From: Euglena gracilis
Lineage: Eukaryota
DNA: 64,000 nt
Direction of reading: 5' to 3'
Assembly (NCBI GenBank): GCA_039621445.1
Contig: CP154954.1
Coordinates: 45,611,847-45,675,846, forward strand
Shown: positions 27,601 through 59,949 of the stretch, one piece after another
Numbering within the stretch: the first letter of the stretch is position 1
How the letters are laid out: the number at the start of each line of letters is the position of its first letter
Position numbers and translations under genes: made by a program
The notes under the pieces: model-generated
Seen by the model: the letters and a program-made list of their open reading frames with translations, nothing else
What the model was told of the DNA's origin: nothing
The model's database searches: none

Positions 27601-28611
27601 GGAAACGAAGCGCAAAGGTCTTTATAGACCATTCCTTGTTCACTGGCGGATTTTTTGGATGTATTCGGTGCTTTTGAGCTAAGAGTCCCTGCTGAGTGCC
27701 TTTTTTGCCGGAGTGGATGTGGTCATCATAGCCTCTCCACTAACGACAGTAACGACGCCTTAAAAGACACCCTTATGGTCTTTTCAAACATTCAGAAAAG
27801 AAATAAAAGCCACCCGTTCCTTAATTATCCTGATTAAAACGCCGACTTTTAGAGCGAGAAAGGGAGTTTCGGGGGCCCATCGAACAGGAGAGGGAGAGGG
27901 TTCGTCTTCTCTAATGTTTTGGCCTTTCTGAAAAAGACGCCGGCGACATTGGCCGGAGTCGGTTCATTTTTTGTGCGATAGCAGCCGAGCGGAGCGGCCG
28001 AGGGTTTTGCCACAGACAGAAGAAAGAGATCAGCTTATTGAACCGAGGGGCTGTGGACCACTCGGGCTTCTCACTTCGGTTGGGTGAGATCCTGCTTTTT
28101 GTGCCGGCTGTATGTTCATGGTGTGTTCTTTGGCGCGGTGCTTCTTGCTGCTTTTTGTTTCCGGAGTTGGCGGATCTTAAGCACCTTTTGGACTACAAGC
28201 AATCACGTCGACATTAATCACATCCGAGAGTGTGTCATCTACAGACGAGAGCTTCTACAACGAAGCCTGGGGACGTCTGTTCCTGGACCCGGTGAAGTAC
28301 GCGACTTGCTGAAGACAAAATCAACGGAGAAGCTTCAAGGCGTGCTGCAAGCCGGACAAGCGTGGAATGGTGGCGGATGGACTTCGACGAAATGCGCCAG
28401 AGCCATACGAAGACCGACGGGGATAGCATTGGTCAGCACAAACTTCGTGGACTACCTGAACAGCTTCTTGTACAGCCTCGTCTTGGTGGCCAACGTGGAC
28501 ATGGCCCTGGTGGATTTATCGGACAAATGTGCGGATGTACCGTTCCATCTCTCAAGACGTCCGGGCGTATGAATTCAACGTGGAAGCGGCGTAGGGAACG
28601 CGCCTCGCCAG

Positions 28612-31600
28612 TGTGCGCGGTCCGAAGGGGCCCGCCCCAAGGGGGGGGTCCCAAGGGGGCCCAAAGGGGCCACGAAAGGCCACGGGGGGCTCCAAGGCCC
28701 CCCAAGGGCCTTTTGAGGCCCCCCTGGCCCCCAAGGTGGTCCCACAGCCCATTTTAACCATGGAAAGGGAAGGTAAAGGAGGGGGAAGGTTGAGGGGGCC
28801 AACAGGCAACCCCCAAGGGGATGAGCAAGCCCTTCTGGACTTTGCGCAAGCATGCGCACCCCCTTGGTGGGCTCCCAGATGGCGCAATTCATTAAGAATT
28901 GCGCAAAGTATACCAATTAGCCCCCCCCCCCAGCTGTAGGCCCCCCAATTGTATTTTTACTCTGCACAGGGCTCTGTTCACACTCTGTTTTTATCTGTTT
29001 ATTTGGCGACAGTTGTGTTCCATTGCAAGTGCCAATTCAAAGAACAAATCAAGGAAACAACAAATTACATTTCAAGTTCAAGTCTCATTGATCAAGTATT
29101 CAAGTTCATTTGTTGAGGAAAAAGTATGTCATCTCCATCCGCACCAACACCAACCCCTACCCCACTTTTCCTCCAAGGGGAAAACCCCCACCAGGTGGGC
29201 CCGATGGGCTCAAACGAAAACGATCCTACGCAGGTTGCTCCGCCAGGGGTCCCTTCACAGGGACCTCAGGAGGGTAAACCCTTACATGGTAGCAGAGGAC
29301 GCCTGGCAGGGCGAGGAGGCCACACGAGTGCACAGGGGGGGGGGGGGCTCCCATCCCCAAGGGCCCCTGTGGGGGCCCACATTCTCCCCCCCCAGGGCTG
29401 GCCTCGCCTAACACCCGCGGCCACCTAGCGCCCCGAGTGGCAAGCGCCCCACGAGACGAGGCGCCCCACGCGCCGCACGTGCTCAACACCGCATGGTGCG
29501 GCAAGGGCGCCGAGGAGGCTTTCGATTTTTCGATTTCAGCTTTGAGCATTTCGGGGAGGGGGCGGTCCGCCCCTGCCCATGGGCCAAGAGGGCTCACAGG
29601 ATCGGAGGGGCAGCGGAGGGGCCCAGACGGTGCCTCCCCGGGTCGCGAGCCCGGAGGCGCCCGTTCCCACTTCTAGCCACTCCCGTGTACCCCCTCCCCA
29701 ACAGCACGCGCCATACACGGCGCGGAGCAGTGGCACCACCGCTCCGTGCGTTTCCAACAAAAAATTAAATTTTTTTCGGAGGCGGGAAAGCACAAGGGGG
29801 GGGCACCTCGGACCGGCAAAGGAGTCAATTTTAAATTGTGCAGCATTTTTTTGAGGAGGGGAGTCTGCGCGGTCCGAGGGTGCCCGCCCCAAGGGGGGGT
29901 CCCAAGGGGCCCAAAGGGGCCACGAAGGGCCACGGGGGGCTCTAAGGCCCCCAAAGGGGCTTTTGATGCCCCCTGGCCCCCAACGGGCCCCACAGTCCAT
30001 TTTAACCATGGCAAGGGAAGGTAAAGGAGGGGGAAGGTTGAGGGGGCCAACAGGCAACCCCCAAGGGGATGCGCAAGCCCTTCTGGGCTTTGCGCAACCA
30101 TGCGCACCCCCTTGGTGGGCTCCCAGATGGCGCAATTCATTAAGAATTGCGCAAAGTATACCAAGTAGCCCCCCCAGCTGCAGCCCCCCAATTGTATTTT
30201 TACTCTGCACAGGGCTATGTTCACACTCAGTTTTTATCTGTTTATTTGGCGACAGTTGTGTTCCATTGTAAGTGCCAATTCAAAGAACACATCAAGGAAA
30301 CAACAAATTACATTTCAAGTTCAAGTCTCATTGATCAATTTTAAACGTTCATTTGTTGAGGAAAAAGTATGTCATTTTCAACATCTCCATCCGCACCAAC
30401 ACCAACCCCTACCCCACTTTTCCTCCAAGGGGAAAACCCCCACCAGGTGGGCCCGATGGGCTCAAACGAAAACGATCCTACGCAGGTTGCTCCGCTAGGG
30501 GTCCCTTCACAGGGACCTCAGGAGGGTAAACCCTTACATGGTAGCAGAGGACGCCCGGGCAGGGCGAGGAGGCCACACGAGTGCACGGGGGGGGGGGGGC
30601 TCCCATCCCCAAGAGTCCCTGTGGGGGCCCACATTCTCCCCCCCCAGGGCTGGCCTCGCCAAACACCCGTGGCCACCTAGCGCCCCGAGTGGCAAGCGCC
30701 CCACGAGACGAGGCGCCCCACGCGCCGCACGTGCTCAACACCGCATGGTGCGGCAAGGGCGCCGAGGAGGCTTTCGATTTTTCGATTTCAGCTTTGAGCA
30801 ATTCGGGGGGGGGGGGGGCGGTCCGCCCCTGCCCATGGGCCAAGAGGGCTCACAGGATAGGAGGGGCAGCGGAGGGGCCCAGACGGTGCCTCCCCGGGCC
30901 GCGAGCCCGGAGGCGCCCGTTCCCACTTCTAGCCCCTCCCGTGTACCCCCTCCCCAACAGCACGCGCCATACACGGCGCGGAGCAGTGGCACCACCGCTC
31001 CGTGCGTTTCCAACAGAAAATTAAATTTTTTCGGAGGCGGGAAAGCACAAGGGGGGGGCACCTCGGACCGGCAAAGGAGTCAATTTTAAATTGTGCAGCA
31101 ATTTTCTTGAGGAGGGGAGTCTGCGCGGTCCGAGGGTGCCCGCCCCAAGGGGGGGGGGGTCCCAAGGGGCCCAAAGGGGCCACGAAGGGCCACGGGTGGC
31201 TCTAAGGCCCCCCAAGGGCCTGTTGAGGCCCCCCTGGCCCCCAACGGGCCCCACAGTCCATTTTAACCATGGCAAGAGAAGGTAAAGGAAGTAGAAGGCT
31301 GAGGGGGCCAACAGGCAACCCCCAAGGGGATGCGCAAGCCCTTCTGGGCTTTGCGCAAGCATGCACACCCCCTTGGTGGGCTCCCAGATGGCGCAATTCA
31401 TTAAATTACATTTCAAGTTCAAGTCTCATTGATCAAGTATTCAAGTTCATTTGTTGAGGAAAAAGTATGTCATTTTCAACATCTCCATCCGCACCAACAC
31501 CAACCCCTACCCCACTTTTCCTCCAAGGAGAAAACCCCCACCAGGTGGGCCCGACGGGCTCAAACGAAAAAGATCCTACGCAGGTTGCGCCGCCTGGGGT

Positions 31601-31636
31601 CCCTTCACGGGGACCTCAGGAGGGGCAACCCTTACA
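28612..31636 (+). mobile_element. Tandem three-LTR non-autonomous LTR retroelement (TRIM/LARD-like) inserted in DIRS-A
   Basis: LTRs at 28612-29286, 29864-30538 and 31120-31636 all end in TACA. PBS TGGTAGCAGAGGA follows at 29287 and 30539, PPT GAGGAGGGGAG precedes LTR2 and LTR3, and CCAG is duplicated at 28608-28611 and 31637-31640. Confidence 0.85.
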
Positions 31637-35220: not shown

Positions 35221-35989
35221 AAAAATACACCCAACCGAAGTGCGACGCCCGAGCGGTCATGCACTACGGGAGCCTTTAGGGAGCCAGGGGGAAATGACCA
35301 GGAGGGCGACGCACAATGGCAGGGTGAGACCGCCCGCCCGCTGGAGGGGAAAAAACCATTCGAGTTCAAAAAGCCGCACCAGACGCCGGGAGGGGAGCAC
35401 GACCGCCATCTCCGGCAACAAACGCGCAGTAAGAAGCACCGCGCCAAAGAACACACCATGAACAAACAGCCGGCACAAATAAGCAGGATCTCACCCTGCC
35501 CTTGTGCTTCGTCCTCCTGGTCATTTCCTCCTGGTTCCCTAAAGGTCCTCGGAGTGCACGAGTTTTCCGCTCATTGGTCGCAAATCGTACTCCCTCGAGG
35601 CAAGCCGAAAAGGGAGGAAGGGACACCGAGGGCGAAGCACAAAGACATTGTGAGGCCATGCCTTGCTCGCCGGCGGTTTGTTGTGTGATTGTTTGATGTG
35701 CTGGGTTAGGAGGCCCCGCTTAGTGCCGCCTCGCCGGAGTTGGCTGCATTGTCTCCGACGTGGCGACCATGGCGCTGCTTCTTTGCTTTGGGGGGCCCCC
35801 CAACCTCCCCCCCCCTGGCCCCCATCTTCTGATCGAGGGCGTTTGAAGACAAATTTTCTTACATGGGTGGGGGGGTCGGGCTCACAATGTCTTTGTGCTT
35901 CGCCCTCGGTGTCCCTTCCTCCCTTTTCGGCTTGCCTCGAGAGAGTACGAGACACCTCGGGCTCTGCACTTTGCCATTGTGAGGCCAGA

Positions 35990-38321
35990 TTGTGCACTGA
36001 AAAAAGGGGGGCCAGGGCATTCTGCAAAGAACCTTGGGCACCAAGTCTTTGATAGTGGGCTGTGAAAGCCTCCACCCCCTTCCATTGACCAATTTCACAA
36101 ACTTCTTGGGCAGAAAGGCCCAATTTTTTGAGTAAACTAACTCCTGCTCCTCTGGTGGAGTGGGTCCCCAAACCTGGGGGGGTACCCCATGCTGGGCCAA
36201 AAAGTTTTTGGTTATAGAAGCAATGGTATCTGCCTTTATGGCTTTATAGGGGGGTTTTAACGTAATTAAAACGGGGCCCCCAGGTTTCACAAAGAAACGT
36301 GTTGCTGCCACATAAGACATCATCAACTGAAAGGGACTGATTTGGGGGCATTGGGGAATGGAGACAACTCTCTCCCACTTATGGAATTTTTGCCCTTTAC
36401 GCTTAATTTTGATGTAGGGTGCCCCCCCCCAACACACTGGTGGTTCTTTGGACCTGTGCCAAATCAGAACTTCTGTATAAACAGAGGATACGTGAACAGA
36501 AAATGAGTTGTGTACGTAATGTACACATATCAGAGGGCAGGGGGGACTGTGCCAGCCCCAGGAGGATTGGGAGGGGTTCCCAGAATGCACCATATTTTTC
36601 CAGGTTTTGGTTCCAAAGCCTTTTATAAGGTGCCAACATGGCATGGAACTTCAGGCCTCCAAAGCCAGGGATCAAAAGCACAGCACTGTATGCATTGCGT
36701 GCCTGGGCCTTTGAAAATTGAAACAGTTGAACTAAAGCGTCAACCACTTGGTCAGTGGTGGCTTCAGGGGGGGGGGGGTACCCCCATTTTGTCCAAAATT
36801 ACCCATAAAAGCGTAAAAGCGCTTTGATAGCGCTTTAAACTGTTTCTTCCCAAGAAATCGTTAATGGTCGAATTTTGTACTTGCTTCCCCTCCACAAGTT
36901 GCCTGAGCAAATCATGCAAAGGAGGGGGCACCTGGGGGGTGGCATTTTTCCCCCTGCAGTTGGTGAACATACCCTTGTAGGGGGTGAGTTTGGGGCAGGG
37001 TGTCCCTGTAACTTTCATTTTTATTAACTGGGGCCACCATGTGGCTGAATCCCAGTAGGAGGTGACCATCAAAACTTTGGCCTGTGGAAACATTTTTAAT
37101 CTGGGGAGAAATTTTTGAATTACAGACCAGGGGGGTTTGCATAAAGTCCCCCCATGTTGTCCAGTGGGCATTGCAATGCGTCCACTGCTGTGGCATCCCA
37201 GTGGGGCCACCTGGCCACAAATTGTGGTAGTTTTTTGTTGCCTGGTGAGGGAATAAAGGTCTGTTTTTAGGCTGATGTAATTTTAGAACTGCTGCCTCAG
37301 CCATTGAAAAAGTTGGGGGTCCAGGGAGTAATCCCCCCTGTCCATTTCCCTCCTGCTTATGGGGTCCGCCAGGCATTCCTTTGAAGGGACCAACTTTACT
37401 TGCAGGTTTATGTTGTGCTCCATGCACCATTTGAAAAAGGGTCTTAGCATGGAATTGAAGGGGTCCTTTCTGCCCCCCCCCTTTTGTTAAGTAATAGTAA
37501 ATTACTTGATTGTCCACTGACAGGGACACAGTTTCTCCTGGTTTGCTTAGGCTTTGTACTGTGCTTATTGCTGCACTTAGTCCTTTGACATTTATGTGCA
37601 AAATGGAGTTTTCCCTCCAAAATTCTTGCACAATTTCGCCTGTTCGAATGTCCAGCCCCCCCCCATGCATGGGTACTGCTGTCTGAGTGCAACTCCCTGG
37701 TTGCAATTTGGGGGAAGGGTCTGCCCCCCCAGGAGTCCAGTAGATTTTTTTTCTCTTAATTGGTCTTTTATTCTTTGGGAAATGGGGTGTTTTGAGTCCC
37801 AGGGGGCTGTGAAATTTTCCACCAAAAAAATTGCGAGGGAATCCGTAAAGGCCCTTAGAAAGGGCAGTGCCATTAGATTGCATCTGATTTGGCCCAAAAT
37901 GGAAGCCAACTGCCTTTTTGACATGTAATCTTTTTTCACCATTTTTCCCAGCTCCTTTTTTACTGTTTTTATTTTCTGCGGGGCACCTGCAATTTTCCCT
38001 CTTGGAAGTTTAATTGAAACCCAAGAAGATTTACGATTTGGGTTGGCTGCAGGGTGGACTTTTTTACATTGATTTTGAATCCTGATTTGATTAAATCCCT
38101 GACCACTGTGTTCAGGTGATTTTGTAACATATTGTGTGTTGTGGCTACCAGTAAAATGTCGTCCAGGTAAATAAATACCTGGATGCCCCTTTTTCTCCAC
38201 AGCTTTTCGAATGTCTTCATTATTGACATAAAAATTTGGGGCATTACGTTCAGGCCAAAACAGCCTGCCTGCAATTCCCAGGTCTGCCCCCCCCCACCTG
38301 ATGTCTTAGAAATGGCCTTAG
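35990..38321 (-). pseudogene. DIRS-B1 RT C-part / RNase H / MTase / tyrosine recombinase (frameshifted)
   Basis: IYLDD, SDSSTHAWGG, LYRSSDL, HSTRG and AHYQR are spread over several frames. Confidence 0.9.
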
Positions 38322-38750
38322 TGTGTACCAGGCACGTCCCAGCTCTGTAGGATATCTGCAGAGTGGGTTCTGTGACGGTCGCACCACTGTGGAAACCCAC
38401 AGCTGGTAAGATCGTGGCAGACCCTTCTGGGATCTGCCCCTGGACACGTCAGCACTTTTCTCTCCTTCCCCCACAGGTGGTATTCTTTACTCTCACAATC
38501 TCCAAGTTTCACCTTTGGATTTGTCAGAGGGAAAAACCCTCAGAACAATCAACTTTGATCTCAGAAGAAAACTTCTGAATCTTTGCTTTGTGCTTTGCCT
38601 CTTGGGGAATTGGGAAGAAAAGGGGAAAACCACTTTTCGTTACTCCAAAGACTTTTCCCTACCATAAGTAGGCTGCGCACCAAGGCGAAAGCGAAAGGCT
38701 TTTACAGAAAGTCCCAAAAAGGGAAAAAGGGAAAGCTTTGGACGTACACT
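38322..38750 (+). repeat. 5' LTR
   Basis: TGTGTACC...GGACGTACACT; no differences from 54850-55278 seen by eye. Confidence 0.97.
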
Positions 38751-38950
38751 TGGTAGCAGAATAGGTCAAAGATCCTACAGAAAGAAAGGCTACCAGGTAA
38801 TACACTTGGTAGCAGAATAGGTCAAAGATCCTACAGAAAGAAAGGCTACCAGGTAATACACTTGGTAGCAGAATAGGTCAAAGATCCTACAGAAAGAAAG
38901 GCTACCAGGTAATACACTTGGTAGCAGATTTAGGCAACGATCCTATACAG
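38745..38950 (+). repeat. 56-bp tandem array, each unit containing a primer-binding site (tRNA-iMet type)
   Basis: TGGTAGCAGA occurs at 38751, 38807, 38863 and 38919 (three identical units plus a diverged fourth). It is complementary to the ...TCTGCTACCA 3' end known for many eukaryotic initiator tRNAs. Confidence 0.9.
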
Positions 38951-39172
38951 ACGTTCCACACAGAGAACCTCTGTGGTTGACTGGTGGTGAGGATCGTACT
39001 GAGCCGTGAAACACGGTGAAAGTACTGTTCCTGGCCCCTAGCCAACCTTTAAGCAAGGATACAGGTCTCAGAAGGCTCTGTTCGGTAATCGCCGATACAA
39101 CCTTTCTGGTCCCTGTTTCTCTGCTTATTTGTGTGAATTTTTGGGTTTTTGCCTTTTTACCCATCTCAAAAG

Positions 39173-42100
39173 ATGCAGAGCACAAGCCCCAACCCCAAAT
39201 TTGATTATGACTTGTTGATGAGTTCATTGAGCAATTGTGATGAAGATTGCGGGGATTGGAACGGTTTGAATGAAACAAGTTCCAATTCCCGACCCCCCAA
39301 GCAAGAAGAAGGCAATTTGACTCATTTGTCATTGTCAAAAGGCGAAACGCCTTTATCATTGCATGGGGGTAATGAACCCTCTTCATCATCTTTGTCATTG
39401 ATTGTCCGGGATGTAGGTGGCAAAATGCCTTCCTCCATCCCGATTCACCCATCATTGATGCGGCGAGGGGATGAACCCCTTGCTACCCCACACTTGGTTA
39501 CTCATGTTACCCATGAACAAAGTGAGGGGTATTTGCCCTTTGCTCTGTTCACACCCAAAAGATCCCCGGTGGAAGCACCGGTGGGCCTTTTGGAGTGCAA
39601 CTCGGTGGAAACACCGTGTTTTTTCCAACCCCCCCCTCAATTACCACCCCCCACACCATTTCACGCTTTGCCGGGATTACCCGCGGAAGCTGCGGTTTTC
39701 CCTGCATTGCCATGGAACCCAGATATGCGTCTGGTGGTGCCGGAAATCTCTGGTGCCGTTTCTATTGTGGAGGACTATGAGGAAGATTTGAGGGATAACC
39801 TCACCCCCGGTGATGTTTTCCGAATTCTCGGTCAACTTCCAGCGGATCACCCGCTTAGCAAGCAAATTTTGCATGTCCACCAATGCGTTGCGGAATGCGC
39901 AACCATGCTCAACAAAGTTTTGCAGTTCGATGAGGACAATCAAAGGGTTGTCAACACCAAACTGGAATGTTGCTGGAATTATTTGCAGGAAATCGGCAAA
40001 TATTGCCAACACAATTTTGAAAATGCGGGGAAAGACCTTCAGCATTTTCGAGAAAGTGTTGACAGTATTTTGCGCATCCAACTTCCACAAAATTTCCAAC
40101 AAATCAGCGAAATGCTGCATGAAGCGGAAACGCGGAATGATTCCAAGTTTCTGCATGTGCAGGATGGTATGAGCCATCTTTTTGCCCAATTGGAGTCCTG
40201 TTCAACCATGTTACTGCAATTGCAGCAGCAGTTACAAGCGCAAAATGCCACCCCCAAAATGCCGGAAATCGGTAACTTTGTCGCGGTTGAGCATTTTGCC
40301 ACACTTACCACTTCTTTCCAAGAAGCGCAACAACGGATTTTGCATCTTGGCTCGGAAATCGAGCACTTGAAGCAATTTCAAGCGAAAGTGCAAGAAAATT
40401 TTGTTCCCCGTTCGCAAATCCAACTTTTGGAGGAACGAATTTTACACTTGGAGCAAAAATCCTGCCATTGTGCCGCAAATCAGGATGGATTAACCACCTT
40501 GAACGCGAAAATCGCAGATTGCGCACAACGGTTGGATTTTACGCAACAACAAATGCAAACGGACATTGGCGGTATTAATGCCACCGTTGTCGGTTTGCAG
40601 GAGCATGTTTTCGCACTTTCCAAGCGAATTCCCGACATTAGTGGTATTCAAGCCGCTATTGGGGAATTGCAAACCCGTTGCACCTTGTTGTCTACCACAG
40701 TGACGGAAATCCGCTCACTACCCCCCATTTCGCGTGCTCGGATATCCGAGTCACCGGAATTTCGCTCATTTTATGACAAAGTGCTTGGTGACAACAAGGA
40801 AACCTTGCAAGCATTTTGTACAAGTTTGCTCCAAATCGAGGAAAGCGTGAATCGGAATGCCCGATCCATGCAAGATGAGGTTTCTCGGTTGGATGGACGA
40901 ATTTCTGCGTTGTTGGAAAAGCCAACCGCGGAAAATTCGCGCACCACCGTGGAAACCCCCACAAAGTCACTCCACCAATTGCAAACCGTCTCAAATGCGG
41001 TAAAAAGCGCTTGCGGGTCAACTCCGGAATGTGGAGGAGTCCCAAGGAAATCTTGCCCAAGAATTACAATTGGTTTCTGAAAAGATGCCACACTTGGAAG
41101 ATTTTTCCCGTTACCGCAAACGCGTTAGGCATTTGGAGACTGAGGTTGACCGTATTTGCGGCCAACTCCAGTTGGTGGAACATTTGGAAGAAACGGTGCA
41201 TGACTTGTCCGCGAGTCTGGATAAAATGTCCACTCCGGTACCGGTTGTGCCACCATCCACCGCGGTAAGCGCTGCGGTTGGTATTCCAAATGTCCCGGAA
41301 TCGCGTTCTCAAATTACCATTTCTGGAGTAGGAATCCCTACATCCACTGCGAATTTGGTACAACCACCCGCGAAAACGCGAATTGTACCACCTTTGCATT
41401 TGCCAACACCACAAACACACTCTTCGCACGACATTTCCGATGAGGAAATTGGCCCCCCACTCGAAAATTCGAGTCTCCACCAAGAAATTCAACATTCCAA
41501 CCTTGTACGAGGTATGTGCCAACACCCCACACCTGGTATTGGTCATGTGTCGCATTCGCGATCATACCAACAACCGACGGGTTCTGGAATGCCAGACCAC
41601 CCATCGGATTTTCGGCGGGAAACCCGCCCCACTGGGGGAATTTCACCACATTTTCCGCGTTTCCCGCAGGAAAATCCTGCCAACCTTACACTTGGTGCGG
41701 GAAATCCTGCACGGGTTACACATGGAGCGGAAAATCCGCGAAACGCGTTTGGTGTTAAGAATTACCCTGACCCAAACCCCTGGAATACCACCGAGGGTCA
41801 GCGGGTTACTCAGAGAGACTTCAAGGGCACCATCGCAATCGCGAACAAGGTGAAACCCCAATGGGACGGGGATCCAACCACATGGAGACAATTTTTTCGG
41901 GATTGGGAGTACTATTGGGCACTAAAAGGACCCACCCAAGACCCGAATCCCGAGGTAGTCAAGATGGAATTCATCGATTGCCTACCGAGGGAGGAGCGAG
42001 AACGCGCACGCAATTTGGTGATACGTAATGGCGTATCATTCGATGACCTGGTTGAGCAATACGCTTCAACCAATTCAAGTCTGGTCACCAGGATTACCCT

Positions 42101-43250
42101 GGAGAAGAAGTGGCGACAAAGCGCGCCATCGGATCGCAAATGGAAATCCATTGACCTTTGGTATGCCAAATGGTTAGCACTTGCTTCCGAAGTTGATGAA
42201 CTTAGCGAGAAGCAAATGCGTGAACAATTCGATGCGGTTTTGTTGCATTTCACACCATCCCTCGTGAAGGATATCCATCGCGAGGAGTTGGCAGGGCATG
42301 AGATGACTCTTGCCCAACGTTGGAATTATGTGTCAAAGCAACTCAAGCTCACACAAGTTTTGGGACAAATACAGTCCGCTTTCCAAATGCATCCCACCGC
42401 GGGAATCCCTGCGGGTGCGGTTAATGCACTACAAAAATCACCCATGTCACCAAGATCACCCACCACGGGACCGAAAACGCGGAATCAGCGTTCTTCGGAC
42501 CAGGGCACGGATAAACTGTGCTTTTTGTGCAACAAATCTGGTCACATGTCTCGGGAATGCCCGAATCCCGATGCGCGAAAGCGTATTGGAAGCCCAAGGG
42601 GCTCGACCTCCTCACGGGGATCGGGTTCCTCGGCGTTTTCACGTCAATCGGCAGTTTCACGGTCTTCGGAGAACCGCTTTAGCGGTAGTAGGCCCAAGTC
42701 ACCATCGCGTGATGGTCGGGAAACCCGTCCTTCTCGCGGTCGGTCACCTGGCCCCCCTGCCCGAAAACGGGATTTCAACCGCGATTCTTCACGATCTCGT
42801 TCGCGAAGTGGATCATCCTCTTCACGCGAGTCAACGGGGAAGTCCCGATACACCGGTCATGGTCGACGGGAAACCCGTTCACCACGACGGTTTGACGGAA
42901 AAACGGAATACCGTTCCCCCCGTTATGCGGAATCCCGCCACAAATCCCGTTGTTCACTTTGCGGTTCCAAAGATCACCACGCATCCAAATGTCCCAGATC
43001 TCGTTCCCCCCGGCCCGGCTACGGAAATCGCGGTAAGCGCCGCGATGACCGTGGTTACTCCTCCAACCGGCAAAAGGTCGGTTTCAAGATATCTTGTTTG
43101 GAGGAGGACACCCCGGCTTCGGGCAGGGAGGGGGATGAGACCTCGGACGGGGAATTTAATGAGGCCCGAATGGCGGTGCGCTCATTGAATTCCATCTATT
43201 CCACCAAAAAGTCCGTTGCCGGCTATGCGGCCGGTTCGGACTTGGAGTAG
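39173..43250 (+). CDS. Gag-like polyprotein with long coiled-coil N-terminus (one +1 frame change at ~41002-41006)
   Basis: ORF 39149-41080 (ATG at 39173; heptad-rich) joins ORF 41031-43250 if one A of GTAAAAAGCG is skipped. It contains a capsid-like WDGDPTTWRQFFRDW segment, two CCHC knuckles (CFLCNKSGHMSREC, CSLCGSKDHHASKC) and an RS-rich linker. Confidence 0.85.
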
Positions 43251-43286
43251 GGGAGCCCGAGGTCCGAGGGCACGGACCTCTGGGCT
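43248..43286 (+). promoter_or_regulatory. Putative stop-codon readthrough signal (UAG-G plus 13-bp hairpin)
   Basis: The gag TAG is in frame with pol. AGCCCGAGGTCCG (43254-43266) pairs with CGGACCTC-T-GGGCT (43273-43286). Confidence 0.7.
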
Positions 43287-43295
43287 GATGAACAG

Positions 43296-46200
43296 ATGGA
43301 GGTAAGACCTGATCAACCTTACCCCCCCTGCCCATCCGCCTTCACGGTCAGTACCCGGAATTATTTCGGGTCCCCTACCCCCCACTCCACATTTCCGCTC
43401 GGAATGCTGAGCAAAGTGGGAAAGGGTTCATGGGAGAGCTGGCATGCAAACGTATTTCCGCCAGACCCTTCACTTTGCGTACCACCAATGGAATTACTCG
43501 TCCAAGCGGAAATCCGCATCCAAAATTTCTCCACTAAAGTTAAAATTCTCATTGACACTGGTTGTCGCATTGCACTGCTCTTTCGGTTGGGGTTGATACC
43601 GACCCCGCTCTTGGTAAGCGCCAAGAAACCGATCAAAATTACAACCGCGGATAACACCCCCATGTGTGGTGGTGATTTGGGATGTGTGCTCGAGATACTC
43701 TTGCCCATCATTCCGAAGCATCACTCACAACCCCCACAAGTACAACATTTCACCAATATTTGGGGTTACGAGTCCGGAATTCACGGGTCTGACGTAATTT
43801 TGGGATACCCATTTTTACGCCAGTACCGATTGGTTGTGGATTGCCACTCCCACGGTTTGCGCACAGCACCCACCACTTCATTGACACCCAAACCACCATC
43901 ACCGTTGTCATCCACTATGATGACCACCGCTTTGCCCACACCGTTACCCACAATGGCAACACCGTTACCCACCACACCAACAACCGTTTTCCACACCCGG
44001 GGTACGGAGAAAGCCTCCCCCCTGCCCAATGACACACCAACATGCGTTCCACATGAGGCAGGGCAAGCGAGTAGCGGTACCCCCACCGTTCCACTGGGTT
44101 ACAAGACGAAAGCCCAAAGGCCTGAAGTAATTACGGTGTCGAGTAGTCGCCCAGCTACACCACCACTCCGTTTCCCACCAGTTGTGCCGAATCCAGGCAC
44201 ACCTGTACAAGACTCACCGGCTAATGCCATCGACACCCACTTTCACGCACACCCGTCACACCATCACACTTCCTTCCAATGTGTGCACTGCAGGAGAATT
44301 TCCACCCAATCGGATTTCGATTGTGGATGTTTAGTTCAAAATCCGACACTAATCGCAATTCCGAAAACGGAATCCACCACCCATGATACACTTGGTTGTA
44401 GCCCGCAATGCGCGGAGATACACCGAGTACTCCAACAACGCGGATTAGCCTCGTTGTTCGGAACCGCGAAAAGCGCGATTCCTAATTACAATCGCGATCA
44501 CCCTTGGTACGGATTTGATGCGGAATGGGGAAACCCCCAACCTGTCCAAACTCCCTTGGGATCAACCCTTGTGGTAGTGGAAGACAGCCCGCATGTTTGT
44601 GGATCCATTCATTGTGTTTCTACCCTTCAACCCGAAAATCGGGTGCATGAATACGCGAAACGCGTATGGAATGCTTTCAATTTTGGTCAATATCGCATTT
44701 TGGAACGATGGTTTTCCAAAATCGCGACATTGGCAAATTCTTTTGATTTGGCATTGGAAATCGATGCCTTTTCATCCAATGCACATGCCCGTTTGCCACG
44801 TCATTGGTCACAACACTCCAACGCATTTGATAAATTTTGGGGTGATACGGTGTTATGGATGCACCCTCCCCCAAAACTTATCGAATGTGCGGTTGAGAAA
44901 ATTCTGCGGGATGAAGCCCGTGGAGTTATTCTCATACCCATCATTCCGGAAGCGGAATGGTTCACACAACTATCGTATGTATGTTTTCATTGGTGGGATT
45001 TACCCACTAATGTACCGATTTTTGAGGATTTTTGTGGTAAAATATTACCACCCTTGCAAGAAATCATTTTTCGCGTATGTTTCTTCGATGCATTCGGAAT
45101 GTCCGAATTCGCGGTGCCGAGGAAGCTCGGTAGCCCCAGGGATACCCTGGCGGTTTCCGCAGTCATCGAGAGTGCAGGTCAGCATCCTAAGTCAGCCGAA
45201 TTCTGTTCGCGGATTACCCGCGAATTCCACGGTGTGCTGGAAAATCCAGTATACGCGTGCGACATCGACCCCGCGATACGCGGTCCGTTCGGTGTTTGTA
45301 AGATCGAGCTTAAGGATGGAGCAAAGCCAATGCACCGGAAATTTTTTCGTTGTTCGGGAGAACGCGAACAAGCTCTCAATGAAATGATTGAGAAGCTTAT
45401 TCAGCGCAAGTGGATTGTACCCTCGAAAAGCGAGTGGACATCCCAGGCATTTGTTGTTCCTAAACCCCCAGACCCCTCAGGTCAGAAGAAATGGAGGCTG
45501 GTGCTGGATTACCGGTACCTGAACTCCCAAACAAGGGATGATCCCTTCCCGCTCCCCCTGATCGAGGATTTGATCACCAAACAATCGGAAAACCGGTTGT
45601 GGTCAATTTTCGATCTGGAGGACGGTTTTCACCAAATGCACTTACACCCTGACTCCCAACCATACACGGCATTCGTGACATCCAAGGGTGTGTACCAATG
45701 GACGGTACTCCCCATGGGTGTTAAGAATGGCCCAGCCATGTTTCAGCGCATGATACAATGGGTTCTACGCGATTTACCGTTTGCCATTGTGTACATTGAT
45801 GATGTGCTGGTGGGAACACCACCACCATCCGCACAATCGAGCGAGGATATCCTCGTCACACACTTCCACCATGTTTGCGCGGTATTAACCGCTTTTCAAA
45901 AACATGTGCTTTTCGCGAAAGGCGCGAAAATGCATTTGTTTCGGATTATTATAAAATTTTGCGGCGACATCCTCAGCAATGGACAGCGGAAAGCCGCTCC
46001 GAGTAAACTCGAAGCCATTAAGAAATGGACCCCTGAGGTAATCAAAACGATTACTCACCTCAAAGGATTTTTGGGATTAGCCCAATACTACGCGATTTAT
46101 ATGAAGGACTTCGCGAAAATCGCGGTGCCCCTCACCAAGCAGCTCAAAAACCGGGCTGTTGACAACACCAAAGTCATTTGGGATGACCAAATGCGCGAGG

Positions 46201-48350
46201 CCCTTGAGAAAATCAAGGTTTTGCTTTTGGAGAATGTTGTCCTCGAAATCGCGGACCCGTACAAACCATACGTGTTGGAAGTCGACAGCAGCGATTACGC
46301 TGTTGGCGGAGTTCTTAGCCAGCATAATGCGGCGAATGAGCTCCGACCTGTGGCTTTCTTCAGCAGAAAGTTACAGGGCGACGATGGAAAAGGTCAAGTC
46401 AAATGGAGTATACGCGAGAAGGAAACCTACGCAATCGTGCTTATACTCCAGAAATTCCGAAGCTGGGTAGCCAGCAGCCTCGTCCAGATCCTCGTCAAGA
46501 CCGACCATGAGAGTCTCCAACACTGGTACACCGAGGATTTGAACAAGGCCATGTCATCGGTCGGAAGGCGATGCAGATGGCATGAGTTCTTGAGTCAATT
46601 CAACCTTGTGGTTATCTATACCCCTGGTCACACACAAAAAGTAGCGGATCCGCTCAGTCGGGCCCCTTGGTATTACCCTGGGAACCCGGATGAGGGAGAC
46701 GCGACTTTTCATGGAAGTCAGGAAGCTGACGACTACGCACGTCGAAACGACGCTGCGGATAATCTTTTGGATTCTTTTCCCGTTTCACAACTATTCCTGG
46801 TCGCACCAGTGCGAGGAAGGCGCCGACGTGGAAGCACGTCCGGGCCCCGGCGTATTACGCGCACGGAGTCCCCTTCTCCACTGTTCTTTCGCGAATGGGA
46901 TTATAGTCGTGACCCGGTGTATGACACCATTGTCACCAGACTTCGTAATGGCGAAGTGCTGGACAATTACACTCTTTCACCTTTACGGTTGGTTTTTCGC
47001 AATGAATCGGGTTACAAATATTGTATCCCCCAGGACCTGGTTGATGATGTGATTTTGTGTTATCACAACCATGGTCACCCTGGGGCCCCCAAACTTCTTT
47101 CGTTGGTGGGCCGCAGGTACTGTACAACCCTGAGCGAGAAAGAGCTTTACTCACGCTGTTTGCGAATAGCGCAACGGTGTCAAATTTGTCAAGCGGTAAA
47201 ACCCCGCAGAGGTACCCCCCCTGGTACGATGGACTTTTTCCCCGTACCCCCTGACATTTTTACATCCCTCTGCATGGATTTTCTGGAATTAGAACCGTGC
47301 AAAGGAACAGACGACAAAATTTACGATTACGTTTTTGTTGTCGTCTGCAGGCTGAGTGGGTACATTGTAGCCATTCCATGCCAGAAGTCAGGGTTGACTG
47401 CCCAAAGTTTGGCAACTATATTTTTGGAGAAATGTATTTGCTTGATGGGTTTACCGAATGAAATCGTGAGTGATCAAGACCATTTGATTTCTTCAAGGTT
47501 TTTCACCACTTTGTGCGGTTTACTCGGAATCGAGCAACATTTTTCCATTATATACCGACCCAAAGGCAATGGTAGAGCCGAGGCAGCCGTGAAATCCGTC
47601 GTGAATATGCTTCGCCTTTCACTGGCTGACTCGCGCAGCAACTGGATATCAGTTCTACCATGGTCTTTGTTTTATATCAATACCCTACCAGGGTTGGTTT
47701 TACCTCACTCCCCCTATAAATTAGTTTTCGGACGGGACCCTCCGGCCATAGGGGATGTCCCTTCGGAGAGACCCGCCCGAACGAGTGTCAGTTGCGAGAC
47801 CTGGTTTGCGGAAGTAGAAAATCTACGTTCTGCAGTCCAGAAGCGCGTCACTGATATTCATGCAGCAAAACGGAAATCGTTTTTGCAGAATTTCAAGTCA
47901 CCTGTTTACAGTCCCGGTGACCGCGTGTGGGTACGGAATAGCCGTACTCGCATGCAGTCTTCCAAGCTGGACCCCCTCTGGCTCGGCCCCTGTGAAATCC
48001 TAGAAAGACTAGGTACCAGCGGGCGTTACAAGGTTGCATTACCGAATGGTGTTGAGGACGTTCATATGGACGACTTCAAACCATACCTGTCGCCACCGGA
48101 TGGGAAACCCATCCCGTGTTTGCACTTCAAACCCCGTTCCAGATTACCTGAGACGGACGACTTTGTAGTCGATAAAATTATCGATCACAAAATCGACAAA
48201 GGTATGCACCTTTGGAAGGTCCGCTGGAAAGGGTATGGGCCCGAGGAGGACACTTGGGAGCCAGCAACCAGTTTTGTTGGGTATGTCCAGCAAGATTGGA
48301 AGCTGTGGAACAAGAAACATAACATTGATGTTTCCATGACAAGTTTTTGA
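43296..48350 (+). CDS. pol: Pol polyprotein: protease - Dam-like adenine MTase - RT - RNase H - integrase - chromodomain
   Basis: ILIDTGC/VILGYPFL; IDAFSS...WMHPPP; LVLDYRYLN, PMGVKNGP, YIDD; VDSSDYAVG, EKE, TDH, ADPLSR; HNHGH..CQIC, MDF, SDQD, NGRAE; WLGPCEI; FVVDKIIDHK...WKVRWKGYGPEEDTWEP. The ORF is uninterrupted for 1,684 aa. Confidence 0.97.
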   Translation: MEVRPDQPYPPCPSAFTVSTRNYFGSPTPHSTFPLGMLSKVGKGSWESWHANVFPPDPSLCVPPMELLVQAEIRIQNFSTKVKILIDTGCRIALLFRLGLIPTPLLVSAKKPIKITTADNTPMCGGDLGCVLEILLPIIPKHHSQPPQVQHFTNIWGYESGIHGSDVILGYPFLRQYRLVVDCHSHGLRTAPTTSLTPKPPSPLSSTMMTTALPTPLPTMATPLPTTPTTVFHTRGTEKASPLPNDTPTCVPHEAGQASSGTPTVPLGYKTKAQRPEVITVSSSRPATPPLRFPPVVPNPGTPVQDSPANAIDTHFHAHPSHHHTSFQCVHCRRISTQSDFDCGCLVQNPTLIAIPKTESTTHDTLGCSPQCAEIHRVLQQRGLASLFGTAKSAIPNYNRDHPWYGFDAEWGNPQPVQTPLGSTLVVVEDSPHVCGSIHCVSTLQPENRVHEYAKRVWNAFNFGQYRILERWFSKIATLANSFDLALEIDAFSSNAHARLPRHWSQHSNAFDKFWGDTVLWMHPPPKLIECAVEKILRDEARGVILIPIIPEAEWFTQLSYVCFHWWDLPTNVPIFEDFCGKILPPLQEIIFRVCFFDAFGMSEFAVPRKLGSPRDTLAVSAVIESAGQHPKSAEFCSRITREFHGVLENPVYACDIDPAIRGPFGVCKIELKDGAKPMHRKFFRCSGEREQALNEMIEKLIQRKWIVPSKSEWTSQAFVVPKPPDPSGQKKWRLVLDYRYLNSQTRDDPFPLPLIEDLITKQSENRLWSIFDLEDGFHQMHLHPDSQPYTAFVTSKGVYQWTVLPMGVKNGPAMFQRMIQWVLRDLPFAIVYIDDVLVGTPPPSAQSSEDILVTHFHHVCAVLTAFQKHVLFAKGAKMHLFRIIIKFCGDILSNGQRKAAPSKLEAIKKWTPEVIKTITHLKGFLGLAQYYAIYMKDFAKIAVPLTKQLKNRAVDNTKVIWDDQMREALEKIKVLLLENVVLEIADPYKPYVLEVDSSDYAVGGVLSQHNAANELRPVAFFSRKLQGDDGKGQVKWSIREKETYAIVLILQKFRSWVASSLVQILVKTDHESLQHWYTEDLNKAMSSVGRRCRWHEFLSQFNLVVIYTPGHTQKVADPLSRAPWYYPGNPDEGDATFHGSQEADDYARRNDAADNLLDSFPVSQLFLVAPVRGRRRRGSTSGPRRITRTESPSPLFFREWDYSRDPVYDTIVTRLRNGEVLDNYTLSPLRLVFRNESGYKYCIPQDLVDDVILCYHNHGHPGAPKLLSLVGRRYCTTLSEKELYSRCLRIAQRCQICQAVKPRRGTPPGTMDFFPVPPDIFTSLCMDFLELEPCKGTDDKIYDYVFVVVCRLSGYIVAIPCQKSGLTAQSLATIFLEKCICLMGLPNEIVSDQDHLISSRFFTTLCGLLGIEQHFSIIYRPKGNGRAEAAVKSVVNMLRLSLADSRSNWISVLPWSLFYINTLPGLVLPHSPYKLVFGRDPPAIGDVPSERPARTSVSCETWFAEVENLRSAVQKRVTDIHAAKRKSFLQNFKSPVYSPGDRVWVRNSRTRMQSSKLDPLWLGPCEILERLGTSGRYKVALPNGVEDVHMDDFKPYLSPPDGKPIPCLHFKPRSRLPETDDFVVDKIIDHKIDKGMHLWKVRWKGYGPEEDTWEPATSFVGYVQQDWKLWNKKHNIDVSMTSF

Positions 48351-54849: not shown

Positions 54850-55278
54850 TGTGTACCAGGCACGTCCCAGCTCTGTAGGATATCTGCAGAGTGGGTTCTG
54901 TGACGGTCGCACCACTGTGGAAACCCACAGCTGGTAAGATCGTGGCAGACCCTTCTGGGATCTGCCCCTGGACACGTCAGCACTTTTCTCTCCTTCCCCC
55001 ACAGGTGGTATTCTTTACTCTCACAATCTCCAAGTTTCACCTTTGGATTTGTCAGAGGGAAAAACCCTCAGAACAATCAACTTTGATCTCAGAAGAAAAC
55101 TTCTGAATCTTTGCTTTGTGCTTTGCCTCTTGGGGAATTGGGAAGAAAAGGGGAAAACCACTTTTCGTTACTCCAAAGACTTTTCCCTACCATAAGTAGG
55201 CTGCGCACCAAGGCGAAAGCGAAAGGCTTTTACAGAAAGTCCCAAAAAGGGAAAAAGGGAAAGCTTTGGACGTACACT
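54850..55278 (+). repeat. 3' LTR
   Basis: Direct repeat of 38322-38750, followed by TSD CTTAG. Confidence 0.97.
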
Positions 55279-55503
55279 CTTAGGGCCTGGCTCACTGGTA
55301 TGTGGAAGTAGGCATCCTTTAGGTCTATTGTTGCTGCCCAGTGGCCTTTTTCCAACACAGGGAAAATGTGCTGGATGTGATCCAGCTTGAAAACTTTCAC
55401 TTGGAACAGTTGATTTAGCTCCCTGCAATCGCTTATTAACCTCCATTTTGTCTGGCCCCCCTCTGGTTTTGCAATCAAAAACCAGGGGATGAGGTGCTGG
55501 GTG

Positions 55504-57089: not shown

Positions 57090-58999
57090 GGTGGTTGAAT
57101 CCCTCACCCTCTTTACGGATCCAGATTTTTCGTAATCCAGCAGTATTTTTTCTGCTTGGGGTAGGTTCAATTTTGCTCTTGGTTTTGGGTGGGTGGCTAA
57201 TTTTGGTGGGTTTACCCAGGGGGTTGAATGCCATCCCTGATGAGTTGACATGTTGTTGGGGGGGCATTTTTTGTCCACCATTTCAGGCTTTTTTGCAACC
57301 TTTGATGGAGGGGGGTGTCTCCCCATTTCTCCTCCATGGAATTTATTTCCTGGATAAGATGATTTTGGGGGGGCTGGGCTGGGGGTGTTGGACATTGCAC
57401 CCTTAGGTCCCCTAGGGCTTGGGCCCTTGGAAAAGGAATTTTTTTCTCGGGGGATGTGCATGCATTCTCTCCCTCTCTGATCACCAGTCTGGAGGATCTT
57501 GTTTTTGGATGACATACCATAGGGCTTAATGCCCCTGTTTTGCCTATCTAATCTTCTCCATGATGATCTGGTTGGTTGACATACCATAGGGGGGCCTCTG
57601 TGGGTCCCCCCCTTGACTGAACAATCGGGACTTGAGAAATAAATGTTGGAGGGGTTCCTGCCCCTCCCTCCAAAAGGGCCGCTGTGGGTCCCTTTTCCTG
57701 CTGAGGCTGAGTCATTAAAAGGGCCACTGTGGGTCCCTTTTTCCCCCCTTTTTGGCAGAGGGCCTCTGTGGGTCCCTCGGGGGAGTTCTCCAGCAGCTTT
57801 CTTAGCTTCTTGGCGGCCACTGTGGGTCCACCCTGCTGGCCTCCAAGGCCTCCATGTATGAATATGTTTCCATAATCCATGTGTTGGTCTTCCAGGCCTT
57901 GATTGCTTCTTGGCCTCCAACCCCACTGGAAATCTGGGGCTGCTGTGGCCCCCCCTTTTCCCCTGGAGAGGGGCTGTTGTGTAAGATGAATTGGGGGGGT
58001 TTGACAGACCTTTTCTGCCCCTTCCTGAGGGGATTTGCTTGTAAAATTGGCCCCCATGGCCCCTGTAATGGTGACCTCCTTGGCCTTGATTCCATCTCCC
58101 CAGCCTTTGGCCAAATTGTGTACAGGCTTGGGGGGAAAGCCCCTGATTCGTGGGCTTTGGATGTCCAATGCTGAAGTATTTTGGGCCTCCATGGCCCATC
58201 CTTTGCCCACTGAGGGCTTGGGCTGACTTCTGTTTTCTGGGTCTTATGGCCACAGTGGTCCAAGGACCGTGGCCGTCACTGGGGGGGTTTTTGTGGGAAA
58301 TTTCTGGGGTGGGGGTCTGGGTGGGAAGAACGGCCACGGTTTGCCACGTGTCGACCGCATCTCCAAGTTCTACAGCTGCTGCTGCGGCCTCTGCTCCAAG
58401 ACGTCCGCGGCCATGAAATTCCAATTTCTTCTCAACTGCATTGCTCATTGAAGTCAAATTTGAAATTTGATAGTTGACTTTTGAGTTGATATTCGTCTGG
58501 TTCGTGTCCTTCTGGATATTGAATTGATATTTACTTCTTTTGTTGGTTCTTCTTCGCTCGTTGACTCTGCTCCTTTCTTCTGGGTGTCGAAGGGCAATCG
58601 TACTCCCTCGAGGCAGACCGAGAAGGGAGGAAGGGACACCGAGGGCGAAGCACAAAGACATTGTGAGGCCATGCCTTGCTCGCCGGCGGTTTGTTGTGTG
58701 ATTGTTTGCTGCGCTGGGTTAGGAGGTCCCGCTTAGTGCCGCCTCGCCGGAGTTGGCTGCATCGTCTCCGACGTGGCGACCATGGCGCTGTTTCTTTGAC
58801 TGGGGGGTCCCCCCCCCCACCTTCCCCCCCCCCCTGGCCCCCATCTTCTGACCGAGGGCGTTTGAAGACAAATTTTCGTATATGGGTGGGGGGGTCGGGC
58901 TCACAATGTCTTTGTGCTTCGCCCTCGGTGTCCCTTCCTCCCTTCTCGGTCTGCCTCGAGGGAGTACGAGACACCTCGGGCTCTGCACTTTGCAATTGT

Positions 59000-59949
59000 G
59001 AGGCCAGATTGTGCACTGAAAAAAGGGGGGCCAGGGCATTCTCCAAGGAACCTTGGGCACCAAGTCTTTGATAGTGGGCTGTGAAAGCCTCCACCCCCTT
59101 CCATTGACCAATTTCACAAACTTCTTGGGCAGAAAGGCCCAATTTTTTTAGCAAACCAACCCCTGCCCCTCTGGTGGAGTGGGGTCCCCAAACCTGGGGG
59201 GGCACCCCCTGTTTGGTCCAAAAGTCTTTGGTGATAGAAGCAATGGTATCTGCCTTAATGGCTTTGTAGGGGGGTTTTAACGTAATTAAAACGGGGCCCC
59301 CAGGTTTCATAAAGAAACGTGTTGCTGCCACATAAGACATCATCAAATGAAAGGGACTGATTTGGGGGCATTGGGGAAGAGAGACAACTCTCTCCCACTT
59401 ATGGAGTTTTTGCCCTTTACGTTTAATTTTGATGTAGGGTGCCCCCCCGAACACACTGGTGGTTCTTTGGACCTGTGCCAAATCAGAACTTCTGTATAAA
59501 CAGAGGATTCGGGAACAGAAAATGAGTTGCGTACGCAATGTACATATATCAGAGGGCAGGGGGGACTGTGCCAGCCCCAGGAGGATTGGGAGGGGATCCC
59601 AGAATGCACCATATTTCTCCAGGTTTTGGTTCCAAAGCCTTTTGTAAGGTGCCAACATGGCATGGAACCTCACGCCCCCAAAGCCAGGGATCAATAGCAT
59701 AGCACTGTTTGCATTGCGTGCTTGGGCCTTTGAAATTTGAAACAGTTGAATTAAAGCGTCAACCACTTGGTCAGTGGTGGCTTCAGGGGGGGGTACCCCC
59801 ATTTTTTCCAGAATAACCCATAAAAGCGTAAAGGCACTTTGGTACCTTTTCAAACAGGGGTTTCTGCCCAGGAAATCGTTAATGGTCGAATTTTGTACTT
59901 GTTTCCCTTCCAAAATTTTCCTGAGCAAATCATGCAAAGCAGGGGCCAC
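59000..59949 (-). CDS. DIRS-B2 tyrosine recombinase
   Basis: R (LYRSSDL), HxxR (HSTRG), W (IGQW) and Y (AHYQR) catalytic pattern. Confidence 0.9.

Follow-up and report, generated by a model that had tools for sequence, protein, structure and literature searches.

A tandem array of primer-binding sites behind the 5′ LTR of a Euglena gracilis chromovirus, best read as a lineage-specific amplification in a tRNA-primed leader

In the portions of the literature consulted here, tandem repeats in the untranslated parts of LTR retrotransposons are well known. The array that we describe is like those of plant Ogre/Retand-type elements in being made of short head-to-tail repeats, in lying in a non-coding internal part and in varying in copy number within the family. 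It is unlike them in that the unit includes the end of U5 and the primer-binding site (PBS), so that a cis-acting replication signal is multiplied, and in that the junction between units is palindromic with the PBS. In avian retrovirus leaders, U5-leader and U5-IR stems flank the PBS. The predicted fold at our locus likewise pairs the U5/PBS junction with a nearby leader segment, but the avian stems are conserved and assist a single PBS, whereas here the stem would have been created by duplication and is predicted to mask redundant sites. Engineered retroviral vectors with two PBSs are another point of comparison: Voronin and Pathak (J Virol 2004) reportedly saw initiation at either site, extension of the LTR from the downstream site and loss of the interval. 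The consequences of carrying several PBSs supply the logic by which we read the 3′ LTR below, but those vectors are artificial and unmasked, while this array is natural and its downstream sites are predicted to lie in hairpins. The Drosophila gypsy element has two tRNA-Lys sites, one 5′ and one 3′, the 5′ one alone being needed for cDNA synthesis according to Gabus et al. 2006 (PMC1635307). Gypsy and the present element are alike as natural LTR elements in which the complement of a single primer tRNA occurs more than once, and differ in that the second gypsy site is at the 3′ end of the genome and not in tandem, whereas four sites lie within 180 nt behind U5 here. Tf1 has a PBS that does not resemble a tRNA complement and pairs instead with the 5′ end of its own transcript (PMC6317226). 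The present element is like Tf1, Sushi and Tcn1 in belonging to the Ty3/gypsy elements with a chromodomain, in its SH3_Tf2-1 integrase domain and in having an intramolecular PBS complement, and unlike them in that its LTR holds no such complement and its PBS is tRNA-like. No description of a natural tandem PBS array was found in the literature searched, coverage of which was incomplete.

The array lies in a 64-kb stretch of Euglena gracilis DNA, which we call the window. Our best reading is that it is a lineage-specific tandem amplification in the 5′ leader of a tRNA-primed chromovirus and not a priming device of the family. The element that carries the array directly behind its 5′ LTR is 16.96 kb long (Table 1). 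It is a chromovirus (Ty3/gypsy, Metaviridae), because its pol frame joins reverse transcriptase (RT), RNase H and integrase to SH3_Tf2-1 and a chromodomain. Within the 1,699 aa of pol, RVT_1 is found at aa 737-905, RT_RNaseH at aa 977-1117, rve at aa 1340-1437 and the chromodomain PF00385 at aa 1638-1673 (E = 5.8e-10, 39.4 bits vs a cut-off of 25.1). It is also a true insertion, because its LTRs are identical, a 5-bp duplication flanks it and an empty paralogous site at ~61335-61345 has CTTAG once. The chromovirus sits inside another repeated element (35583-38321 plus 55279-55503), and an uninterrupted second copy of that host repeat, with 91-97% identity, lies 23 kb downstream at 58596-61561 and supplies the empty site.

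Several other features of the element and the window were observed. The zinc-knuckle gag frame and pol share one reading frame (41004-48350) that is split by a single stop at 43248-43250, and the first gag frame (39137-41080) overlaps the second in another frame; this layout suggests either read-through and frameshift expression or recent damage. Upstream of RT, at pol aa 493-573, a stretch like the N6-adenine methyltransferase-like family Dam (PF05869) scores 19.8 bits, below the cut-off of 28.1; the same family is above the cut-off in the relatives P0009 and P0012 (33.5 and 40 bits) and is precomputed for 16 among the 120 relatives listed. The C-terminal half of the first post-pol frame is not low-complexity. 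Relatives of the pol protein occur at 45-86% identity in metagenome assemblies. In viral contigs, pol searches gave 11 pattern stretches with the single protein and 59 with a 12-sequence alignment, none of which was confirmed. Elsewhere in the window, 10-bp repeat arrays (TAAAATGGCC and variants) occupy three places ~1.5 kb apart between 13962 and 17203.

Table 1. Positions, within the window, of the chromovirus, its leader array and the predicted junction hairpins
Feature	Start	End	Strand	Basis
Left target-site duplication CTTAG	38317	38321	+	
5′ LTR, 429 bp, TGTGTAC...GTACACT	38322	38750	+	identical to 54850-55278
Unit 1: TACACT (U5 end), PBS1 (38751-38760), leader head, tail AAGAAAGGCTACCAGGTAA	38745	38800	+	
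Junction hairpin 1, predicted to mask PBS2	38789	38813	+	-13.9 kcal/mol; pairing probability 0.98; MFE fold
Unit 2, same letters as unit 1; PBS2 at 38807-38816	38801	38856	+	
Junction hairpin 2, predicted to mask PBS3	38845	38869	+	pairing probability 0.97; MFE fold
Unit 3, same letters as unit 1; PBS3 at 38863-38872	38857	38912	+	
Junction hairpin 3, predicted to mask the ordinary PBS (PBS4)	38901	38925	+	pairing probability 0.98; MFE fold
"Fourth unit": ordinary U5-end copy, PBS (PBS4, 38919-38928) and leader of the single-PBS form	38913	38945	+	X15 contig join
gag region: ORF 39137-41080 and overlapping ORF 41004-43250 with CCHC zinc knuckle	39137	43250	+	
pol: weak Dam-like stretch, RT, RNase H, integrase, SH3_Tf2-1, chromodomain	43251	48350	+	
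Three open frames after pol (960, 432 and 465 aa), no Pfam family	48438	53956	+	
Polypurine tract GGGAGGGGGA, abutting the 3′ LTR	54840	54849	+	sequence context
3′ LTR, no units behind it	54850	55278	+	
Right target-site duplication CTTAG	55279	55283	+	

What is the array made of? Tandem Repeats Finder reports a repeat at 38745-38945 with a period of 56, 3.6 copies, 97% matches and a score of 372. A preliminary description, made from the letters of this DNA, had seen a 56-nt unit three times plus a diverged fourth, and this holds: the three units between 38745 and 38912 are 56 bp each and letter-identical, and a fourth copy starts at 38913. Each unit starts with the final 6 nt of U5, continues with the 10-nt PBS beginning with TGG (TGGTAGCAGA) and goes on into proximal leader; the fourth copy has the same first 16 nt (TACACT plus TGGTAGCAGA), agrees at 12 of the next 17 and then diverges, with 84.8% identity over 33 nt. 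The array is non-coding and lies between U5 and the first gag-frame ATG near 39173. All four of its PBS sites are exact over their 10 nt, and TGGTAGCAGA occurs six times in the window against 0.08 expected, a count that none of 100 shuffles reached. The repetition of TACACT and PBS in the units was described correctly, as was the presence in them of GCTACCA, which is exactly complementary to the first 7 nt of the PBS in the same RNA: inside the element this motif is found three times, solely in units 1-3, and TGGTAGC four times. The 19-nt tail of the unit does not recur in the window outside the three units, even at up to 3 mismatches. By eye, the loose ends of host contigs suggest that the start of the tail, ACAGAAAG, corresponds to ACAGAGAA of the ordinary leader and that the unit of the present copy lost ~11 nt. 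Two derivations of the tail were tried by alignment and rejected, one from the last 42 nt of U5, with TACAGAAAG in common (307 of 5,000 shuffles were as good), and the other from the ordinary leader (matched by 3,068 of 5,000 shuffles). The string CAG/GTAAT in each unit was considered as a splice-donor candidate and then dropped.

Parts of the stretch were found in 20 of the 24 public runs listed (17 studies), and four runs were compared, all as short-word contigs: X1 and X6 (DNA of the host, organism A), X15 (organism B) and X19 (a leaf-litter metatranscriptome). Copies of the family are extremely numerous, 9,755 contigs in X1 and 10,497 in X6 matching the stretch. In X15, a contig of 2,447 nt (record 15) joins 38322-38744 straight to 38913-39500, with 423 letters on one side of the joint and 588 on the other, and skips exactly 168 nt, or 3 x 56. 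X1 and X6 each have a single contig with a join of this kind, from 38750 to 38918. These contigs, which leave out the units and run directly into the ordinary PBS, indicate that what was counted as a "fourth unit" is simply the PBS and leader usual in the family, and that the three identical units are a 168-bp insertion relative to a single-PBS form. That form has no GCTACCA. The preliminary description had made its functional readings depend on other copies having the array and the GCTACCA complement; the X15 contig, with neither, largely undoes them, but other copies do share the unit tail before a second PBS. The presence of the repeats differs among copies of the family, as the same X15 contig and the variant two-PBS contigs show.

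How common is the unit in the host? In the array-interior bin 38816-38859 the summed contig word depth is 5,233 in X1 and 3,936 in X6, against ~0.75-1.05 million in the flanking bins, so that the depth inside the unit is about half a percent of that of its flanks, a ratio of depths and not of copy numbers. Unit-type words are present in two independent runs, from different studies, as a small minority. Contigs end loosely at 38889 and 38895 (13 and 4 in X1, 11 and 2 in X6), and X6 also has joints from 38760 to 38891 and from 38780 to 38904. In other host copies the tail of the unit precedes a second PBS, and the first leader upstream of it is a different one. Because of this shared tail, the contigs argue that the duplicated-PBS architecture is inherited, that it forms a minor subfamily with several sequence variants and that it is not unique to the locus; the increase to three identical units may be confined to the lineage or the locus. 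Bins 38772-38903 are uncovered in X15 and X19, whose depths of 9 and ~26 would let a half-percent variant escape detection; the X19 contigs end at 38760 and resume at 38913, without a bridging contig. Among host copies the leader just behind the PBS (38929-38960) is highly variable, with several 14-39-nt replacements in X1 and X6 contigs, and the LTR part has mostly single-base differences. A degenerate PBS-plus-leader pattern gave 0 matches in metagenome contigs, and two metagenome loci picked up by a 22-nt LTR word (L001 and L002) were rejected as chance matches, lying in GC-rich coding sequence of bacterial type and lacking a surrounding LTR.

The same data bear on whether the unit count, or the array as a whole, could be an assembly artefact or a product of replication slippage after integration that was never reverse-transcribed. 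The three units are letter-identical and show no sign of age, their number is taken from the assembly, since short-word contigs collapse a 56-bp repeat and cannot give a unit number, and the window holds no further copy of the family with which to compare them. The occurrence of unit-type words in the two runs from different studies speaks against this explanation, as do the 151 contigs of X1 and 114 of X6 that match the stretch at two positions. The same tail recurs in variant two-PBS copies, which points to inheritance of the basic duplication; only the increase to three units, from one or two, could be local. We regard an artefact or slippage as quite unlikely.

The folding of the region was predicted in silico for the RNA alone, without protein, tRNA or a dimer partner. 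The region folds better than each of 200 dinucleotide shuffles (z = -4.4), and its MFE fold contains three identical hairpins, in which GCUACCAGGU at the end of one unit pairs with ACUUGGUAGC through 10 bp around a 5-nt loop, AAUAC. The second arm is made of the last three U5-type bases and the first seven PBS bases of the following unit. The palindrome is not a chance product, because just 111 of 200,000 random 18-nt tails (about 6 in 10,000) gave 10 of 10 pairs. The preliminary description had proposed that each unit folds to hide its own PBS, with an inner TAGG/CCTA stem. The inner stem is present in the predicted fold, and a lone unit can indeed close on itself at -10.9 kcal/mol vs -13.9 for the junction hairpin; in a 600-nt context, however, GCUACCA is predicted to pair with its own PBS at a probability of only 0.003-0.013, vs 0.97-0.98 with the next PBS. 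The mean paired probability is 0.60 for PBS1, 0.78 for PBS2, 0.78 for PBS3 and 0.84 for PBS4. For the PBS of the single form, folded with the 168 nt left out, it is 0.69, and PBS1 is thus predicted to be about as open as the PBS of that form. Matches to the junction palindrome among viral contigs numbered 0.

The GCUACCA arm had been interpreted as a mimic of a tRNA 3′ end. To us it rather resembles the U5/PBS junction copied in inverted orientation, because the stem runs three bases past CCA into U5, whereas a tRNA 3′ end stops at CCA. ARAGORN found no tRNA genes in the window and Rfam gave no matches in 38200-39300 at E up to 1; a tRNA-derived insert would be expected to show more, and here there is neither tRNA similarity beyond CCA nor a tRNA-like fold. 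The motif was also the basis for proposing priming in cis, in which GCUACCA would fold onto the PBS, the RNA would be cut after CCA and the new 3′ end would prime the minus strand in the manner of Tf1. An exact 7-nt complement of the PBS start does lie in the same RNA, and the lone unit can form the stem, but in the array the pairing of a unit with its own PBS nearly vanishes, and in the favoured hairpin, whose loop is 5 nt, the complementary arm lies upstream of the PBS; a cut there would leave hardly any template to copy. The signature of Tf1-type priming is missing as well: the LTR holds no complement of the PBS of at least 7 nt, the longest complement to the PBS plus 6 nt being the 6-nt CTACCA at 38659. 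The PBS is tRNA-like, starts with TGG directly after the last base of U5 and is used by an unrelated element too; in the consulted part of PMC6317226, tRNA-complementary PBSs are absent from the self-priming clades. The single-PBS form entirely lacks GCTACCA, and we consider self-priming extremely improbable.

Which primer is used, and at which site? The PBS is putatively that of initiator tRNA-Met, judged by the 3′ end of this tRNA. The unrelated element in question is a small LTR element at 28610-31636, in which TGGTAGCAGAGGA directly follows the ...CA end (CCCTTACA) of each of the first two LTRs; it shares the 10-nt PBS of the chromovirus, extended to 13. The occurrence of the same motif directly after the LTR of an unrelated element supports a host tRNA as the primer. 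The small element has the order LTR-internal-LTR-internal-LTR with a 1,252-bp unit, and its LTR is 677 bp long (TGCGCGG...CCCTTACA), the third LTR having a 161-bp deletion.

In the standard retroviral scheme, priming at the k-th PBS would put units 1 to k-1 into both progeny LTRs. The 3′ LTR of the present copy was said to be free of units, and this is borne out: it ends in ...GTACACT, is followed directly by the CTTAG duplication and carries zero units. Because this LTR is unit-free, the standard scheme does imply that the present copy was primed at the first site, as the preliminary description had argued, provided that the array was already in the template RNA. First-site priming agrees with the predicted masking of sites 2-4.

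Could the array nonetheless serve the element? A functional leader with several PBSs might improve capture or packaging of the primer tRNA, or sequester inhibitory 3′ tRNA fragments that target the PBS, with the hairpins switching the site in use. Repression of LTR elements by 3′ tRNA fragments through the PBS is described (PMC12853362), which counts in favour of this idea. The four exact sites in tandem speak in its favour, as do the U5 terminal hexamer before each extra site, which would yield a native-like DNA end if priming took place there, the non-random palindrome and the recurrence of a two-PBS architecture in several variants among host reads. Against these points, the half-percent depth of the unit interior, a ratio that is not one of copy number, belongs to a hugely abundant family, a contig bridges a single-PBS copy, and the present copy was not primed downstream, as its unit-free 3′ LTR implies. 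The predicted masking of PBS2-4, moreover, fits poorly with a sponge or with extra loading sites. Unit-type words are a small minority in the runs compared, where the family is extremely abundant. A functional role is unsupported beyond the palindrome and the recurring architecture, and we judge it unlikely. The readings of the array as a decoy, a priming switch or a cis self-priming device of the family, as first put forward, also find no support, since the family has a form with one PBS and without GCTACCA. A bolder version is a heritable multi-PBS leader with built-in site choice, in which each extra PBS is preceded by the hexamer, so that DNA primed there would keep an integrase-type terminus, and is locked by a hairpin; we hold it to be very doubtful. 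If it were true, opening of the hairpins by a chaperone, by the tRNA level or by temperature would move the priming site, progeny LTRs would be longer by whole units, which would be a natural route to the growth of U5, and the element would be a natural counterpart of the engineered two-PBS vectors.

What the data show is how the array is built, that it is an insertion, how it is predicted to fold and that unit-type sequence occurs in independent runs; the mutational mechanism, the site actually used and the neutrality of the array are inferred. We think it rather probable that the array arose as a template-switch duplication, was then amplified and has been tolerated since the extra sites are folded away. 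One segment, running from the U5 end (6 nt) through the 10-nt PBS into the proximal leader, would have been duplicated, leaving at the junction a short inverted copy of the U5/PBS junction (GCTACCAGGT vs ACTTGGTAGC), as would be expected from a template switch by reverse transcriptase or a DNA polymerase. The unit would then have been amplified to three identical copies, which make up the 168 bp now separating U5 from the ordinary PBS. By the fold predictions, every junction palindrome closes into the 10-bp hairpin that locks PBS2, PBS3 and the ordinary PBS4, while PBS1, which abuts the true U5, would stay about as open as the PBS of the single form, and the host tRNA would still prime there. 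Continued priming next to the LTR fits the unit-free 3′ LTR. The array would thus be a tolerated passenger, probably neutral or mildly costly. 

Three considerations weigh against this account of duplication, amplification and tolerance. Units 1-3 and both LTRs are without differences and the reading frames are long, so an array-bearing RNA probably transposed recently and the array is at least not disabling. The direction of change is set by parsimony, and loss from an array-bearing ancestor would be an alternative; reverse transcriptase deletes direct repeats easily. In addition, selection for masking could explain the palindrome as well as a mutational by-product does.

What are the implications for the family? 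For now the array amounts to a minor structural variant within a family of very many copies, and a function is without support so far. If the array passes through reverse transcription, it would be a natural test of how an element copes with redundant primer sites. Such a test would show which site is used, how often units are lost or move into the LTR and whether RNA structure alone can silence a PBS. The duplication and remodelling of the U5 end together with the PBS bears on the evolution of LTR ends and leaders.
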